Source of the DNA: a virus
Reading direction: 5' to 3' (one strand)
IMG/VR virus record: IMGVR_UViG_3300050144_000109
Span: 64,001-128,000 of that record
Length of the DNA: 64,000 nucleotides
This document shows positions 5,554-58,471 of this stretch, piece by piece. Both the position numbers and the translations under genes were made by a program. The notes under the pieces were generated by a model. The model searched no databases. It saw only the letters and a list, made by a program, of their open reading frames with translations, and was not told the origin of the DNA. Within the stretch, counting starts at the first letter, position 1, and every line of letters begins with the position of its first letter.

Positions 5554-5701
5554 TGGGAGTGCTTCCTTTTTCTTCAGTGGTTGGAGAGACTAGGATAGAG
5601 GCGTCATAGTAGCAAGTAGATGGAAGACAAACTCCATCTACTTGCTAGAAGACGAACCCCAATGAACACGGCAGGTACATCCTATTCCTGGTATTCACTA
5701 A

Positions 5702-5729
5702 GATGATATACGGTTGTGATTTTTTGCAA
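5702..5729 (-). promoter_or_regulatory. Putative phage (early) promoter motif upstream of nvRNAP beta'
   Basis: TTGCAAAAAATCACAACCGTATATCATC, one of 8 copies of the motif. Confidence 0.65.
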
Positions 5730-5763
5730 TCATAAAGTCCCAGGATCCGGACAAAAAAGAAGC

Positions 5764-5807
5764 CGTGTCGTTCTAAGCCAGGCATGACCCCAGCTTAGAA
5801 CGACACG
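5764..5807 (-). terminator. Terminator downstream of chimallin
   Basis: 15-bp perfect stem followed on the minus strand by a T-rich tail (TTCTTTTTTGTCC). Confidence 0.75.
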
Positions 5808-5845
5808 AGCAACTAGACTTACTTGTTACTGAACAGAGTCAGCGA

Positions 5846-9211: not shown

Positions 9212-11344
9212 TTACGAATAGTAGTCGGACACGAGTCGTTTGATCTTATCGTCGTTGGTATAGAATCCCAGTGTTTCAAGCACCAAGTAAAAACTCTTGC
9301 ACAGCTCACTGACTAACTTGCGAAAGTCAATGACTTGCTTTACCTCTTCAGGGATGCCCACAGCTTGAAGAATGGGTGCTGGCAGATGGAACGTCGAGAT
9401 AAACATCTTCTCATTCTTGACCATGTACCGTGACAGTCTTTCAGCAAGCTCCCTGTCTTTAAAAGACTCAATCCAAGCGCGAGTCTTTCTAGTGTTGTCA
9501 GTTGTGAGCGAGATTTTCACAGTCCCATAAGGGGGAGGCGCGACTTCTCCGTAGGATTGTGACCAGACTTCCATCCAGAAGTTGTGGTTCTGGTAAGGAC
9601 TTTCCTCTTCTTCTTTGGTGTAACTTTCTTTTTCTTTAATAGAACCAAAGCGAATGTACTTAGATTCTCCTCTGAGCAAACTATCCATGATCTCACGCTC
9701 AATCTCAGCGACAATCTTGAGATACTTCATGATAGAAATCTTCTTACCTGCCTTGACAGTATCCATGATGTCAACCATCATGTCTTTAGATCTAGAGATG
9801 ATTTCCTTATTGATGTTGGAGTTCTTTAAATGCACCCCTTTGATTTCAAGATCGGATGGATCCAATATATTCCCTTCTTGACAACCAATGCCAGCATAGT
9901 AATGTTTACCCAGCTGCGTAGGAACAAACACATCAAAACGAAATTCACTTTTCATGGCAATTCTAAACATGTACTCTTTGTCTACGCCCATGTTGGCGGA
10001 CATGGTAGCCAGGATGTGTACAATGGCTGAAGATGCAATGAACGTCATAGTGGCTTGCATAGCGATGGCACGCTCTGAGAAATTCAACTCCCCTTCATAC
10101 CAAATCACCCAGTCTTGTACTGTGAAGATGGTAGAGTCAGTATCACTCAGGACAGCAGCTCTTCGAATACTTTCAGGGAAATACCCTACGCTGGCTGGGA
10201 TGTTGTCACTGACCATGATGACTTTGATAAAGTCAGCATATTCCTGAACTGTTTGTTGTGCATTTAAGATGGTCAGCGCCAGTGTGTCAATGTCTTCCGG
10301 CTTTCTGACTTTGGAATAATCCTTACCAATGCCTCTAGCTTCTTCTTCACAGATCTGGTGCGCAAGGTTTACATAGGCATCAGGAGCATTTTCAATCACC
10401 TTTTGTGCACTTGGACATACTCCTTTAATTTTATTGCTCAAACGCGTGATAAAGGCACGCATAAAGGATTCATTGAGTAGCAAGACTTGGTACAGATCTC
10501 CCGTATAAACAAATGCCGCTCTTTGGAAACCATTGAGTTTTTCGATGGTGGAACGGATCTTCTGTATCCACAAGTCATTTCTGAAATACAAATCAGTAGA
10601 GTATTTCACACAAGCCAGCGCCTGTTCGATACTGGGGATTACCAAATTGTACTTTTGAATAACGCCAATCAGTGCATCGTAGTCTGTGTGTCCAACAATT
10701 GAAATGATGTTGTTGTTTACAGTGCGCCAATCTCGATAGTGTCTATTCCCACTGAGCAGTTTTTCATTGTCGGCGTTTCCATAACCACTGGTGCTCCTGC
10801 ATACACTGGTGAGCGTGGAGTGTGCTGTCTTATTGAACAGTGGTGTACTGGGGGTGACATGGGCCCCACTCACCGCATTGTTTTTGAGCTTACGATTGGT
10901 TTGTTCAGATTTCTTGAACGTGTACAATTGCGCATCTTTATTAGCCTTTGCAACAAACATCGCTTTCTTAGCTTTATTTCGAAGCGCGATATTGCCATCA
11001 ATGTACTTTGCCAACAGTGATTTCTTTTTCTTGGTATTGATGTACGTTGTGAACGTGGGCGCTATGATGTCACCAGCAGCAATAGACTCATCGATGTACT
11101 GCTTGAGTGTACCTTCTTTCAGTTCACGATCACCAAACTCATTTCTCTCCAAGTACTCTACCTTGGGATCTTTGAACTCAAACACACCGCCTGGACGAAG
11201 TGCTTTTGAGATAAATCCCCTGACCTCTTCTTCGCTGGCACCCGTCATCAACTCCAAATACAACCTACAATCGTGCACGTAGTCGCCCAATGGATTCAAC
11301 TTACGAACATATTCGTCTACTGGCTTAACAAATGGATCTTGCAT
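9212..11344 (-). CDS. Family-B-like DNA polymerase, polymerase-domain subunit (phiKZ gp50-like)
   Basis: Motifs KLKNNAVSG, SDTDSTIF and EIKGVHLK. Likely start at ATG 11344 (MQDPF) after an AAGGA RBS; the ORF track extends to 11428. Confidence 0.88.
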   Translation of the reverse strand: MQDPFVKPVDEYVRKLNPLGDYVHDCRLYLELMTGASEEEVRGFISKALRPGGVFEFKDPKVEYLERNEFGDRELKEGTLKQYIDESIAAGDIIAPTFTTYINTKKKKSLLAKYIDGNIALRNKAKKAMFVAKANKDAQLYTFKKSEQTNRKLKNNAVSGAHVTPSTPLFNKTAHSTLTSVCRSTSGYGNADNEKLLSGNRHYRDWRTVNNNIISIVGHTDYDALIGVIQKYNLVIPSIEQALACVKYSTDLYFRNDLWIQKIRSTIEKLNGFQRAAFVYTGDLYQVLLLNESFMRAFITRLSNKIKGVCPSAQKVIENAPDAYVNLAHQICEEEARGIGKDYSKVRKPEDIDTLALTILNAQQTVQEYADFIKVIMVSDNIPASVGYFPESIRRAAVLSDTDSTIFTVQDWVIWYEGELNFSERAIAMQATMTFIASSAIVHILATMSANMGVDKEYMFRIAMKSEFRFDVFVPTQLGKHYYAGIGCQEGNILDPSDLEIKGVHLKNSNINKEIISRSKDMMVDIMDTVKAGKKISIMKYLKIVAEIEREIMDSLLRGESKYIRFGSIKEKESYTKEEEESPYQNHNFWMEVWSQSYGEVAPPPYGTVKISLTTDNTRKTRAWIESFKDRELAERLSRYMVKNEKMFISTFHLPAPILQAVGIPEEVKQVIDFRKLVSELCKSFYLVLETLGFYTNDDKIKRLVSDYYS

Positions 11345-11430
11345 GAATAATTCCTTGTTATAGTGAAGCGTATTCTTTCTCGTTAGATATTGGTACATGG
11401 TGCTTTTATACAGAAAATCAAACAGCATAA

Positions 11431-11476
11431 GTGGGGTCGTAGCGCACCGGCAACCGCCAATACGCTACGACCCCAC
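11431..11476 (-). terminator. Hairpin followed by TTATG, 3' of the candidate ncRNA
   Basis: 14-bp perfect stem gtggggtcgtagcg/cgctacgaccccac. Confidence 0.65.
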
Positions 11477-12040
11477 CGGGTGTATAACCAGACAACAATG
11501 ACAGAGAAAAGTCGATATACCGTAAGTGGTCGGATCCACCACCAAGAAGACTACACTCTTCCGAAGGCAATTGACTTCTATTTGCTTTGCCAACGATCCA
11601 AGCTCAAACAAGGGTCTACATTGAGAGGGGTGCCGACGCCTTGGAACCAGTGAATCAAACAACAAGACAGTGTAGAAAATCGATTACCGTCTTCAGAACA
11701 TCTCAGTGTTCAAAATGGATCCGACCACACGACAAGTCGCAAGCAGATAAACCCACCTGCGACAAAAAAAGAAGAGCGTTCGCCTTCCTTGAATGAGAGA
11801 CCAACTGAAAAGAGTAGCAGATGAACAAGCAGAATTCCACCACTGTTGCGGCCTGAAAGACTCGGGAAATCCCACCAAGGGATGAGTCTAGGCTGCTGAC
11901 ATGTGAAAGGTGGACTGCGTTCATGTCCTCAAACCAATTGAAATCTCACTCAAGGAAGGGTACTTACTTTTTTCCAACCACAGGAGCAGCAAATGCCACT
12001 TGCCAAGAAATAGCTTCAATGACCAGTGTGTTTGCATACT
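11477..12040 (-). ncRNA. Candidate large structured non-coding RNA
   Basis: No credible CDS. Nested long-range helices (11783-11798 with 11944-11959; 11526-11538 with 11716-11728; hairpin 11736-11763). Many mismatches become G-U pairs only on the minus strand. Confidence 0.6.
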
Positions 12041-12051
12041 ATATGTATATT

Positions 12052-12462
12052 TTAAGTGCTTGTCATGATGGAAAGATCGAAGTTATTGAAACCACTCCGA
12101 ATCAAGAGGTCTCGAATACTGTTCATGTCAGAAGAAGAAACGCCGTGAATAATCAAGCGCACGGTCTGCGAGTTGACCAGTGTAGGTTGTGTAGCAATCC
12201 ATTCGTGCGCAATGATCCGGTAGTCACCACTACTGGTCTTGATGCGAATGTAGGTGAGGTCCCTGGCATCTCTGGAGATGCCGGTGCCTAGTGTTGGGAA
12301 TACGGTTGCATGGGTCGCTGCAAGGTCGCCTTGAAACTTGACAGCATCGTTGTACATGAGAATGCTGGTGACAGTTGCATTCTCATAACCAATGCCTAAA
12401 ATAGCCACTGCTTTTAAAGTGATATTGTAGGTCTGGTTCAGTTCAATATTGAACAGTCTCAT
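12052..12462 (-). CDS. Conserved jumbo phage small beta-barrel protein (phiKZ gp49-like)
   Basis: Likely start MRLFNIE at 12462 overlaps the upstream stop (ATGA); 136 aa. Confidence 0.65.
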   Translation of the reverse strand: MRLFNIELNQTYNITLKAVAILGIGYENATVTSILMYNDAVKFQGDLAATHATVFPTLGTGISRDARDLTYIRIKTSSGDYRIIAHEWIATQPTLVNSQTVRLIIHGVSSSDMNSIRDLLIRSGFNNFDLSIMTST

Positions 12463-12899
12463 GGTGGATATTGTCCTGTACGTAGCGGATGTGGGGTAGA
12501 ACTGGTGAGATGGATATGCCCGTAGATGACACAGTCGTAAACATACGGGCAATACTTCTCACCGTTCGCTGGGTTGATGGTCATAGGAATGTTTTCCTTT
12601 TGAAACAGTGACAGCAATCTCAGCGCTAGCAAGTTGTACTGGATGATGCGGTTGGAGAAATTGCTTGTCCATTCACCAGAATCACTGAGCATGCTCTCGG
12701 AGCTCAATCTGGGTATCTCGAACTGAACACCAAAGAAACTATTTACTTCCACTTTGTTCGAGACGGATTCATAATCAGACAAAGCTTTCTGTACTGCTTT
12801 TCTAATTAGCTCTTCTACGTCTTTAAAGTCCGGTACTTTAAGACAGGTCAACATCTCGTCCAACATCTCTTCTGTGCGCAGCACAATGATCTTACTCAT
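12459..12899 (-). CDS. Hypothetical protein
   Basis: 146-aa ORF in a tightly packed, coupled operon. Confidence 0.7.
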   Translation of the reverse strand: MSKIIVLRTEEMLDEMLTCLKVPDFKDVEELIRKAVQKALSDYESVSNKVEVNSFFGVQFEIPRLSSESMLSDSGEWTSNFSNRIIQYNLLALRLLSLFQKENIPMTINPANGEKYCPYVYDCVIYGHIHLTSSTPHPLRTGQYPP

Positions 12900-12902
12900 C
12901 TC

Positions 12903-13298
12903 TTAATCATTCCTTTTGAATACCAGACAACCATTAGAAATCCCAATGAGGGTCAATTGAAGTTTGTAGTTCAGGTAATGTCCGCTGGCTTCTAGTTTAT
13001 CCATGCAGATCAAGGCACATGTCGTTAAGTAGTTTACTAAAAGTTCAAACTCATAGCCAAACATTTCAATGGTATTCAGTCGGACATAGAGTTCAGTATA
13101 GGCTGATAGTTTTTCTTGAGACGTTCTTTTGCGGAGAACGGTACTCAAGAAACTGAATAATTTAAGATCATCAAGCAGACCAGTCTCCCAATTCAAGTCT
13201 GCTTCTAAGACTTCCACAGAAGCCTCAGGGATCTTTACAATCACAAGCTTCCAAGGAAACTCATAGGTATCGCTCGAAGTTGAACACGACGGATTCAT
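12903..13298 (-). CDS. Hypothetical protein
   Basis: 131-aa ORF, operon packing. Confidence 0.65.
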   Translation of the reverse strand: MNPSCSTSSDTYEFPWKLVIVKIPEASVEVLEADLNWETGLLDDLKLFSFLSTVLRKRTSQEKLSAYTELYVRLNTIEMFGYEFELLVNYLTTCALICMDKLEASGHYLNYKLQLTLIGISNGCLVFKRND

Positions 13299-56300: not shown

Positions 56301-58471
56301 GGTGCCTACCGTTTCGGCTGTTGAGTTTCATCAACAGAATCATTGCTGATTACGCATATCGAGATGCGCCCTACTCTACTCGCTTTAATCGCTTCATTCA
56401 AGCAACCACCTGACTTTATACAGATGTGATTATCCAGCACCAAAAAGCACCAGAATAGCTTTCGATGGCCTCTGAGCACACTCCGTATACCACAAGGATA
56501 CCTTAGGAGCTTCGCTGCGGATCATGTCTTTTAACAACGTTTTAACCAAGCCTGATTGGATCATTACCCGACAGGTATTGCACTACGTTTCCATGTGCAA
56601 GTGGTAGCTGTTAAAATTTTAAGACGTTTTCCCGCACTTAGGTAGGTTTTCTTTTACCGTATTTCTACGAGTAAGGGGACCATGCTTGGCTTTTAATCCC
56701 CGCGCTGTTTACGCATCCGGTACTTCGTACCAGAAGCTTCGAAGGTACCGTCCTCTTGAATCTTAGGAATCTTGAACTTGATCGTACTGGGAGCACCCTC
56801 CACAGGAATCAGCTTCACCGTGTGGTCCTCATAAGAGCCCATGATGTCTTCAGTCAGCTCAATCTGATAGTCTGCAACAGCCACCCCAGCTTTTTGAATC
56901 TGAGTGACCATGGATGCAGTATGTCTAGGCAGAATCTCTTTGATGTACTGCTTGTCAAACCCCACCAGTGTACTGGACAACATGGTCTTGTCCACCACTG
57001 TTTTCTCATCCAAGAAGCTCTGGGTCTTCTTCAGAATCAATTGCTCAGGACTCACCTGAATCTGCTCACCCAAAGTCCCTTCACCATAAGGGTTCTTGAT
57101 GTTCTTATAAGCCCCAGCCAAAGCAGTGAAGCGCTTGTACTCACCAGCCGTCAGTAAGCCGTCATCAGCCAATCTTTCACATACATCCAACACCCCCTTC
57201 TCCAAAGGGGCGTCCTTGACTGCCATGATGGTTCTAAAGTCCACACCGGAAGACTCCACTTCTAAGTCAGACTTGTGGGCAATCTCGTTGAGCGCAGCAA
57301 GTTCCTCATCGAGAATTCGTTCTTCCTCAACCATCCTCGCTTTCTTCTGCTCAGGCGTTTCGTCTTCTTCCTCTTTGTCTAACTCTTCCACTGATTTGAG
57401 TTGTACATCAAACGCAGTATTGAGCTGCTTCTTACCCAAGATAGAGTTACTGTCTTCATCAACGGCAGGAAAGTCAAACTCTCCATTGTCCATTGCATCA
57501 GTCTCCATGTCAGACTTGTTCTGCAAGACGCCTGCGACTCCTTTGGCGTCCTGAGCGTCAGAGGTGTTCGCAGTCGCAGTGCGCGCTTCCATGACCCGCA
57601 TCAGAAAACGAAGAAAGCGTTTCTGTACTTGCTCAGCCCCTACAGCACCGGGCAATACCACTTGAGCTGTATTCTCAGGCGTGTTCTCTTTGTTCTCATC
57701 TAGCGCATTCAGTCTGAAAGCATCCAGATACCCTAGATTGATCAACGTCCACTTGCCAGTTTCTTGGTGCACCAAGTTGATCAGGTGAAGTTTGTTCCGA
57801 GGAATCTTAGAGAACAGACTCGTCTCACGGTCAGGACCTAACCACTTCCAAAGCTCCAATACCATCCAAGAGTTGACATCGTTGAAAATCTTCAGCAAAG
57901 GCTGAGATATGTTCTTGCTGGCAGCGTCTAGCTGAGCGATGCTAGGAAGGATCTTAGGAATGCCGCAGAGCAGGTACTGGTTCGATTCTACCAATGAAGC
58001 TACATTCGCCATCTCACGTGTGATCGCAGCGAATGTGTTGTGCCACTTGTAATACTCCGTGAAGACAGCCCGCACGTAGCGGTAGTTCTTTGCAATGAGA
58101 CAGTAGTTGTAGCAGATGAGAGTCTGCTGGTCTTTGGCTGTAGACTCTAGTGCACGCAACTGTCGCAGTCTGCGGTTCTTGTTGAGAAGCTCTCTCAGGA
58201 GTGTGCCTTCTGAGATGACTAGTTTTCTAGGAGGGCCTAACTCATCACCAACTTCATTGACGTTGTGCAGGAAGATGGATTTGGTCTGCCCGTTGAAGAT
58301 GAACTCGTCTGGTTCAGGACCCAGTGCAATTCCGTCGTAAGTGACATGGTGGTAGAGACTTCTGAGGGGCAAGCTCAAGTCTTTCAGGTCGTGCAAGATA
58401 GGTGTCATCAACAGTGAGAGCGTGCGGACACCGTACTTTCTAAAGTAGATGGCTTGATTCAGAGTGGTCAT
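53366..58471 (-). CDS. Virion RNA polymerase beta subunit (phiKZ gp178-like), spliced: 58471-56696, 56250-54820, 54484-53366; 1441 aa
   Basis: Joins give RKQRGD|LPLRK and DRDD|GKRVNFVAIQ (beta conserved region). EDA and GDKG motifs in exon3. Confidence 0.93.
54485..54819 (-). mobile_element. Group I intron (335 nt, no ORF) in vRNAP beta
   Basis: P1: GAU|UAA pairs with UUAGUC. P AAUUGCUGGGAA, Q AAUCAGCAGC, R GUUCAACGACUA, S AAGAGAUAGUC; terminal G. Confidence 0.93.
56251..56695 (-). mobile_element. Group I intron (445 nt, no ORF) in vRNAP beta
   Basis: P1: GGGGAU pairs with GUCCCC. P AAGUGCGGGAAA, Q GAUCCGCAGC, R CUCAGAGGCCA, S GAUAUGGUC; P3 CCUACC/GGUAGG; terminal G. Confidence 0.92.

Follow-up and report, generated by a model that had tools for sequence, protein, structure and literature searches.

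A candidate two-rod non-coding RNA gene between the SH3DP and DNA polymerase genes of a nucleus-forming phage

Jumbo phages that form a nucleus keep transcription apart from translation, and the control of their RNAs is poorly understood. RsaE/RoxS and S. aureus RNAIII are base-pairing RNAs whose C/U-rich loops occlude Shine-Dalgarno sites. Of another kind are the rod-shaped protein-binding RNAs, adenovirus VA RNA I, the EBV EBERs and bacterial 6S, which are imperfect duplexes of ~160-200 nt and separate units. GOLLD and ROOL are phage-borne ncRNAs of several hundred nt with a multi-domain, ornate fold. Closest in source to the case described here are short intergenic or 5′UTR-derived ncRNAs of phiKZ and 201phi2-1, less than 250 nt in length, that were mapped by ONT-cappable-seq and Grad-seq (PMC10914365, PMC11512511, PMC8545117). 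The article texts of the phiKZ and 201phi2-1 transcript maps make no mention of the gp49-gp50 junction.

The junction considered here is in a 148-kb IMG/VR contig (G000, estimated 55% complete) of a chimallivirus; the window, i.e. the whole stretch of DNA analysed, is 64,000 nt of it, and positions are those of the window unless the contig is named. An SH3DP (gp49-like) gene and a gene for a divDNApol-type family B polymerase flank a non-coding gap, all on the minus strand. The earlier note had rightly seen 11431-12040 as gene-free, but the true limits are 11345-12051 (707 nt), with the polymerase starting at ATG 11344 (MQDPFVKP, AAGGA just before it) and not at 11428. This start follows from the alignment of the relative L014, which begins at MQDPFVKP, and from the ~710 aa length of the polymerases in relatives. 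The mechanical ORF starts (9212-11428; 12052-12552) are too far upstream; SH3DP begins at ATG 12462, and the ‘ATG’ at 11428 is part of a TATG promoter motif. The SH3DP-polymerase order, on the same strand, is common to L003, L004, L014, L015, L017-L020, L025 and L026. The features of the locus are as follows.

12052-12462, minus strand: gene for the SH3DP protein, 136 aa (Pfam PF20287, matched on ORF 12052-12552)
Just upstream of the box at 12035..12043, minus strand: AAAATATAC element, resembling the phiKZ middle-promoter motif
12035..12043, minus strand: promoter-like box TATAGTATG (TAT-N2-TATG), from motif comparison, G at 12035 being the presumed +1
11989..12035, minus strand: 5′ hairpin with a basal helix GCAAA/UUUGC from the presumed +1 (z -2.1)
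11958..11991, minus strand: invariant 34-nt stretch UGCUGCUCCUGUGGUUGGAAAAAAGUAAGUACCC, 100% identical in L014
11765..11973 (core 11959-11783), minus strand: rod 1, a 209-nt irregular hairpin of ~76-77 bp in the MFE structure
11764..11770, minus strand: U7 run right after rod 1, read from the sequence and conserved in L014
11736..11763, minus strand: hairpin of 11-12 bp (z -5.6 on the minus versus -3.0 on the plus strand)
11519..11733, minus strand: rod 2, closed by a 13-bp helix (11728-11716/11538-11526), with a diverged interior
11431..11478, minus strand: terminator hairpin of 20-21 bp, an intrinsic terminator by definition and the presumed end of the RNA unit
11426..11429, minus strand: TATG directly after the hairpin, the presumed polymerase promoter from the hairpin-TATG pattern in relatives; punctuation, not RNA
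9212-11344, minus strand: gene for the divDNApol-type polymerase, 710 aa (PF20286, phrog_2927)

The explanation preferred here, and considered probable from the sequence, is that the gap holds a minus-strand ncRNA gene, an independent transcription unit between the SH3DP and polymerase genes. We strongly infer a stand-alone RNA, its transcription being deduced from sequence features. The phage RNA polymerase would start at the G (12035) of the TAT-N2-TATG box and generate an RNA of ~607 nt ending at the hairpin 11478-11431, though a form of ~272 nt may stop at U7. The order in the RNA would be the 5′ hairpin, an invariant single-stranded CUCCUGUGG linker, the 209-nt rod, the small hairpin and a second rod of ~215 nt, in which closing helix, rod shape and C/U-rich apical loop would be what is kept.

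The unit as predicted is like the mapped chimallivirus ncRNAs in coming from the same family and would share with them a phage promoter, an ORF-less folded RNA and a hairpin terminator before the next promoter; a 100-170-nt TATG-to-hairpin unit is present in phiKZ and PhiPA3 at the same gp49-gp50 junction. It is unlike them in its ~607 nt, its two rods of ~210 nt and the lack of detectable shared sequence. With VA RNA I, the EBERs and 6S it has in common a long imperfect duplex (here a predicted fold) and being non-coding; however, rod 1 differs from 6S in having only small internal loops, no large central bubble and no Rfam match at E up to 10. The size and phage origin of GOLLD and ROOL are comparable, but two simple rods contrast with their ornate fold and neither window 10500-13000 nor 14 related loci yielded a match to them in Rfam. 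More generally, cmscan of 10500-13000 against Rfam 15 (E up to 10) gave just two matches, both at chance level and well below threshold, one of asX6 to the terminator hairpin and the other of a snoRNA model to sequence beyond the gap, and the 14 related loci gave 0 matches at the gathering threshold. That there is no group I core and no recognisable known family, as the earlier note had it, is in keeping with this, group I introns being included in the search. ARAGORN found no tRNA or tmRNA in the window.

Helices that had been placed by eye stood up well to a repeat search combined with RNAfold. The rod arms, the 13-bp helix and the 11763-11736 hairpin were all recovered where they had been drawn, the inverted repeats found being 11783-11807/11935-11959, a perfect 13-nt one at 11526-11538/11716-11728, and the terminator arms 11431-11451/11456-11476. 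The base of rod 1 consists of an A6/U7 helix plus CCCUUCCUUGA paired with UCAAGGAAGG, and its apex is a UUGGU loop. In contrast, the MFE structure lacks the three-stem multibranch interior proposed for the domain inside the 13-bp helix; in its place is another long rod capped by a single apical loop, ACCCCUCUCA at ~11632-11621.

With RNAfold against shuffled sequence, 11431-12040 gives strongly negative values on each strand, an MFE of -245.7 kcal/mol and z of about -7.75 for the minus and -205.3 kcal/mol and z -9.99 for the plus, and the z-score of the whole region does not tell the strands apart. By part, the minus-strand z is -6.7 for rod 1 (11973-11765), -5.6 for the hairpin 11763-11736, -4.8 for the domain 11733-11519 and -8.9 for the terminator. 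None of the other ORF-poor contig gaps, in a comparison of 20, reaches so low an energy per base (-0.399 kcal/mol/nt) or so extreme a z on either strand. Other ORF-poor gaps are also strongly folded, with z of -5.5 to -7.7 (10 shuffles), at contig G000 4824-5602 and 57824-58387 and at window 5554-5845; they are mostly several perfect hairpins, and 57824-58387 probably contains a small gene.

Discrimination between strands comes from comparison with the only DNA-alignable relative, Logan contig L014 (SRR29299489), whose polymerase is 80% identical and which was reached via polymerase protein homologues. In the polymerase gene, window and L014 are 35% identical at 4-fold sites, 49% at third codon positions and 89% at second, i.e. 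its silent sites are saturated. In the gap, 12048-11721 (the 5′ ~330 nt) is ~87% identical and 11991-11958 is 100% identical; conservation of the 5′ half is close to that seen at second codon positions in the polymerase gene. The 5′ part of the invariant stretch, CUCCUGUGGUUGG, is predicted to be single-stranded and its 3′ part is the rod 1 base.

For rod 1, 75 of the 77 MFE pairs of the window are canonical in L014, against a mean of 67.9 when L014 residues were reshuffled among columns with the same window base, and only 5 of 20000 such permutations reach 75. The pairs comprise 67 that are unchanged, three double compensations, five one-sided changes and two that are broken. All five one-sided changes leave a G-U pair on the minus strand and no pair on the plus, which is favoured by none of the changes. 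The claim of the earlier note that G-U pairs point to the minus strand only thus holds for the substitutions seen in L014 but not for the rod in the window sequence itself, where G-U pairs number five on the minus versus four on the plus strand (MFE -82.5 versus -78.8). When 5′ hairpin, linker and rod 1 are taken together, 0 of 20000 permutations reach the observed pair count; the 5′ hairpin, whose first base is the same G at 12035 as the presumed +1, contributes two compensatory pairs (RNAalifold). Downstream, the hairpin 11763-11736 keeps 11 of 11 pairs in L014, one by double change, and the 13-bp closing helix of rod 2 has two double and several one-sided compensations.

The gap element is under selection on both pairing and sequence, and in a strand-specific manner. 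Compensations, G-U changes tolerated on the minus strand only and the 5 in 20000 of the permutation test, with covariation coming from one relative, bear out the earlier suggestion of selection as a folded minus-strand molecule. The interior of rod 2 behaves differently. It is only 27-53% identical in L014, its sequence is unalignable, and the permutation test against L014 found no conservation of its pairs; this being the sole alignable relative, covariation checks neither the rod nor the multibranch fold. Even so, the predicted fold of rod 2 is in both genomes a single long rod whose apical loop is rich in C and U, the probability of being unpaired being 1.00 for CCCCUCUC in the window and 0.87 for CCUCCUUCC in L014.

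Searches for further alignable relatives were consistently negative. There were none by blastn versus INPHARED; conserved 20-22-mers, searched for as exact matches in three scans of IMG/VR, turned up a single chance match, in an unrelated coding region (L022); nhmmer with a window/L014 profile versus all syntenic loci gathered gave no further relative; and a related-locus search of viral and metagenome contigs gave only polymerases at 43-49% identity. No second copy of the element is present in the contig. In L020, L025 and L026 the base helix of the rod appears compensated by eye, CCUCUCUUUGU/ACAAAGAGAGG versus CCUCUCUGCGU/ACGCAGAGAGG, with an alignment too noisy for counts.

Another reading is a cis element without trans function, either a 3′ UTR or terminator array of the SH3DP operon (as insulator or exonuclease block) or an attenuating leader of the polymerase mRNA. 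This is rather unlikely, though several features speak for it. The stretch from the SH3DP stop (12052) to the box lacks a terminator hairpin, and the RNA could also be the 3′ end of the upstream operon. Rod 1 with its U7 is shaped like an oversized intrinsic terminator, the succession of rod and U-run recurs in L018, L020 and L003, and long-stem terminators have been reported for 201phi2-1 (PMC11512511). The more distant phages phiKZ, PhiPA3, RSF1 and LucasX manage with gaps of ~120-270 nt, still with a small TATG-to-hairpin unit. From its sequence, the U7 after rod 1 is a possible intrinsic stop that would yield the short form of ~272 nt.

However, the combination of rod 1 and U7 falls outside the intrinsic terminator definition, being 209 nt long and having stems 92% identical in L014 versus 70% for the terminator 11478-11431. 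The latter, with -43.9 kcal/mol in a 52-nt window, is 30% diverged in L014 and has five compensatory pairs, a pair count that 0 of 20000 permutations reach. Within the same genome pair the paired columns of rod 1 are 8.4% diverged versus 26% for its unpaired ones. Divergence of 8% in rod stems versus 30% in the real terminator indicates that the sequence of rod 1 is constrained and not only its stability. Neither the 34-nt invariant, partly single-stranded stretch nor the promoter-like box makes sense for a terminator. As for a leader, the polymerase has its own presumed promoter, the TATG after the -43.9 kcal/mol hairpin, downstream of the fold. The option of a ‘giant leader controlling the DNA polymerase’, offered in the earlier note, is argued against by this hairpin and by a second conserved TTATG, which in every relative examined stand 61-85 nt ahead of the polymerase start.

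The punctuation on which an independent RNA unit would depend recurs in relatives, and both the start at a conserved TATG box and the end at a hairpin that had been proposed earlier have counterparts in their gaps. The proposed start had the right motif but was one base off, its coordinates being 12038-12035 (G at 12035) rather than 12039-12036. A TAT-N2-TATG box occurs no more than 40 nt from the SH3DP stop in 8 of 10 gaps compared, plus L026; carriers include the window, L014, L015, L018, L019, L020 and L003, in which G-Y-R-A-A-A-like bases follow, and L025 has a box variant, TATAATGTG. The gaps sharing the box are otherwise unalignable. In phiKZ, experiments have defined TATG, its G being +1, as the late promoter of the nvRNAP (non-virion RNA polymerase) (PMC4666361; PMC7598289; PMC12809450). 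TAT-N2-TATG as a general promoter motif of the phage was rejected, with only two matches in the 64-kb window. A host sigma-70 promoter was also set aside: ATGACA-17-TATAGT scores 10/12, purely as a match to the consensus, and these phages have been described as not depending on the host RNA polymerase (PMC4666361).

At the other end, 10 of 10 relatives' gaps examined have a strong hairpin and then a TTATGC(C/T)G-like sequence, 61-85 nt upstream of the polymerase start. Contig-wide, 30 of 632 TATG (4.75%) follow a strong hairpin (-23 kcal/mol or stronger), versus 0.07-1.5% for ten control tetramers. From the sequence, the hairpin-then-TATG arrangement looks like terminator-promoter punctuation used genome-wide. 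A strong perfect hairpin followed by (T)TATG(A/C)(C/T)G recurs ~30 times in the contig, often without a U-tract, examples in the window being at 5608, 11429, 21669, 31640/31696, 35384 and 43730. In another variation, L020 (2140-2160) and the matching place in L025 and L026 have a second conserved box, TAC(T/C)ATTATATG, after the U-run of the first rod, and these gaps may carry two consecutive RNA units.

A quite unlikely possibility is that the element acts at the level of DNA or replication, as an origin with extruding palindromes or through a transcript priming via an R-loop. ColE1 RNA II and T4 oriF/oriG are analogues of such priming. The element adjoins replication genes in all relatives, its long imperfect palindromes have a strong z on both strands, and G-T wobbles would be tolerated in a minus-strand DNA hairpin. 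Against this, there is no switch of GC skew or gene orientation at contig 75.4-76.0 kb, the cumulative minimum being ~46 kb away; iteron-like direct repeats are absent, with only weak two-copy ones present, and at 47% G+C the region is like the genome. All five one-sided substitutions keep their pairing on a single strand, a restriction not required of a double-stranded cruciform, and the promoter box and terminator punctuation agree with an RNA unit.

The gap does not code for protein. It contains ORFs of 38-87 aa on both strands without start context, but in L014 the 73-aa ORF 11703..11924 is cut short at 23 aa and a 38-aa ORF changes frame; there is a 1-nt indel versus L014 inside rod 1, and window-L014 similarity extends to all six frames. 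None of the gap ORFs had a PHROGs match, and there was no protein-level similarity among the syntenic gaps. With ORFs cut or frame-shifted in L014, the earlier reading of the region as non-coding, 11703..11924 included, is sustained. One or more small proteins (e.g. from the 73-aa ORF 11703..11924), or a decayed gene or mobile-element remnant, are hardly credible despite those ORFs on both strands and a 107-aa sense ORF in the syntenic gap of 201phi2-1, given that the ORFs are cut or shifted at ~87% nucleotide identity, with six-frame similarity and neither start context nor a PHROGs match, and that a remnant, here without a second contig copy, would not by decay leave conservation above that of synonymous sites.

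The ncRNA gene that is preferred here would not be confined to this phage. ORF-free SH3DP-polymerase gaps of 401-728 nt are present in L014, L015, L017-L020, L025, L026, L003 and Burkholderia phage FLC9, and in the eight folded versus shuffles (L014, L015, L017-L020, L003, FLC9) the sense-strand z is -3.9 to -8.6. The FLC9 gap is 536 nt long and has the UUCCUU loop. A plan of 5′ hairpin, long rod and U-run is common to L018, L020 and L003. Phage 201phi2-1 was dropped as a further example, as its gap holds a plausible 107-aa sense ORF. This unannotated ORF (L008:2135-2458, between gp81 and gp83) has a hydrophobic N-terminal segment and a charged tail, and the annotated gp82, on the opposite strand over it, may be a mis-call. 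Among the polymerase genes, that of a JGI contig (L019:2338-4438) is called in two pieces of 61 aa and 645 aa, which may reflect a frameshift, an error of assembly or a gene that is truly split.

In the gaps of 10 relatives, the sense strand has a hairpin loop GUUUCUUCCUUUGA, versus five matches in ~290 kb elsewhere (counted by regex with background, since MAFFT set its stems in different registers). The loop, of 13-16 nt, is conserved on unrelated stems that differ between lineages, and its sequence is complementary to ribosome-binding sites of the AAAGGAAG type. It is a candidate for the defining motif of a wider RNA family. In RP31 and FLC1-1B the GUUUCUUCCUUUGA hairpin is one gene further upstream than the pre-polymerase gap. 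The GUUUCUUCCUUUGA hairpins, all on the sense strand, are:

L018:1396-1431, sense strand: GUUUCUUCCUUUGA hairpin
L019:2015-2053, sense strand: GUUUCUUCCUUUGA hairpin
L020:2222-2255, sense strand: GUUUCUUCCUUUGA hairpin
L025:1717-1748, sense strand: GUUUCUUCCUUUGA hairpin
L026:1773-1806, sense strand: GUUUCUUCCUUUGA hairpin
L003:3744-3780, sense strand: GUUUCUUCCUUUGA hairpin
L005:2177-2213, sense strand: GUUUCUUCCUUUGA hairpin
L006:1930-1962, sense strand: GUUUCUUCCUUUGA hairpin
L004:2620-2658, sense strand: GUUUCUUCCUUUGA hairpin
L011 near 220, sense strand: GUUUCUUCCUUUGA hairpin

The canonical UUCCUUU loop motif is absent from the gap of the window, which has instead CUUCCUUGA buried in the rod 1 base, CUCCU in the invariant linker and the C/U-rich rod 2 apical loop. 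The ribosome-binding consensus derived for this phage is AAGGA(A/G). A hypothesis for function is that a trans-acting RNA would display pyrimidine-rich, anti-Shine-Dalgarno-like single strands on rigid rods, that the targets of these strands would be purine-rich ribosome-binding regions of mRNAs or else an RNA-binding protein, and that rod 1 would serve as a sequence-specific protein-binding or stabilising scaffold; this is our best guess at the mechanism. The parallel to RsaE/RoxS and RNAIII is in pyrimidine-rich strands on stems, with apical CCCCUCUC and linker CUCCU in the window, CCUCCUU in L014 and, in relatives, UUCUUCCUUU, the complement of the consensus AAGGAA. However, the present RNA would be several times larger, most of its conserved sequence is double-stranded, and its complementarity to ribosome-binding sites is no better than that of permuted loops.

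Specifically, the apical loop compared with the 175 ribosome-binding windows of the phage was no better than permuted loops (p 0.43 for mean energy, 0.17 for the fraction of strong duplexes). The invariant linker was marginal in the same windows versus shuffled linkers (p 0.05 for the mean, 0.11 for the best match). The idea of ribosome-binding-site targeting is not supported by pairing tests in this genome. Three genes that have CACAGGAG or (A)UCACAGGAG(C) at their ribosome-binding sites are complementary over 10-12 bases to linker GCUCCUGUGGUU; they are at contig G000 30693-31001, 141994-142407 and 143593-144270, the latter two beyond the window (which ends at contig 128000). The match of UCACAGGAG to the linker is only a lead, p 0.11 for the best match not being significant.

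An extension of the ncRNA gene reading, which is tentative and on balance doubtful, is that it represents an undescribed class of 0.4-0.7 kb two-rod trans-acting RNAs, fixed in the replication block (SH3DP, RNA, polymerase) of a large environmental clade of nucleus-forming phages. Members would either mimic the mRNA-docking sequence of the ribosome to time translation or serve, in a sequence-specific manner, as scaffold or decoy for a protein of the phage or its host. If that is so, the two-rod class would be a bacterial-virus counterpart of viral RNAs of the VA/EBER type.

For annotation, the polymerase start needs correction and large ‘empty’ gaps in these genomes are not to be filled with spurious ORFs. 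If expressed, the RNA would be much the largest ncRNA tied so far to this virus family, and its constant position within the replication block of many uncultured relatives makes it a concrete target in cultured ones, e.g. FLC9.
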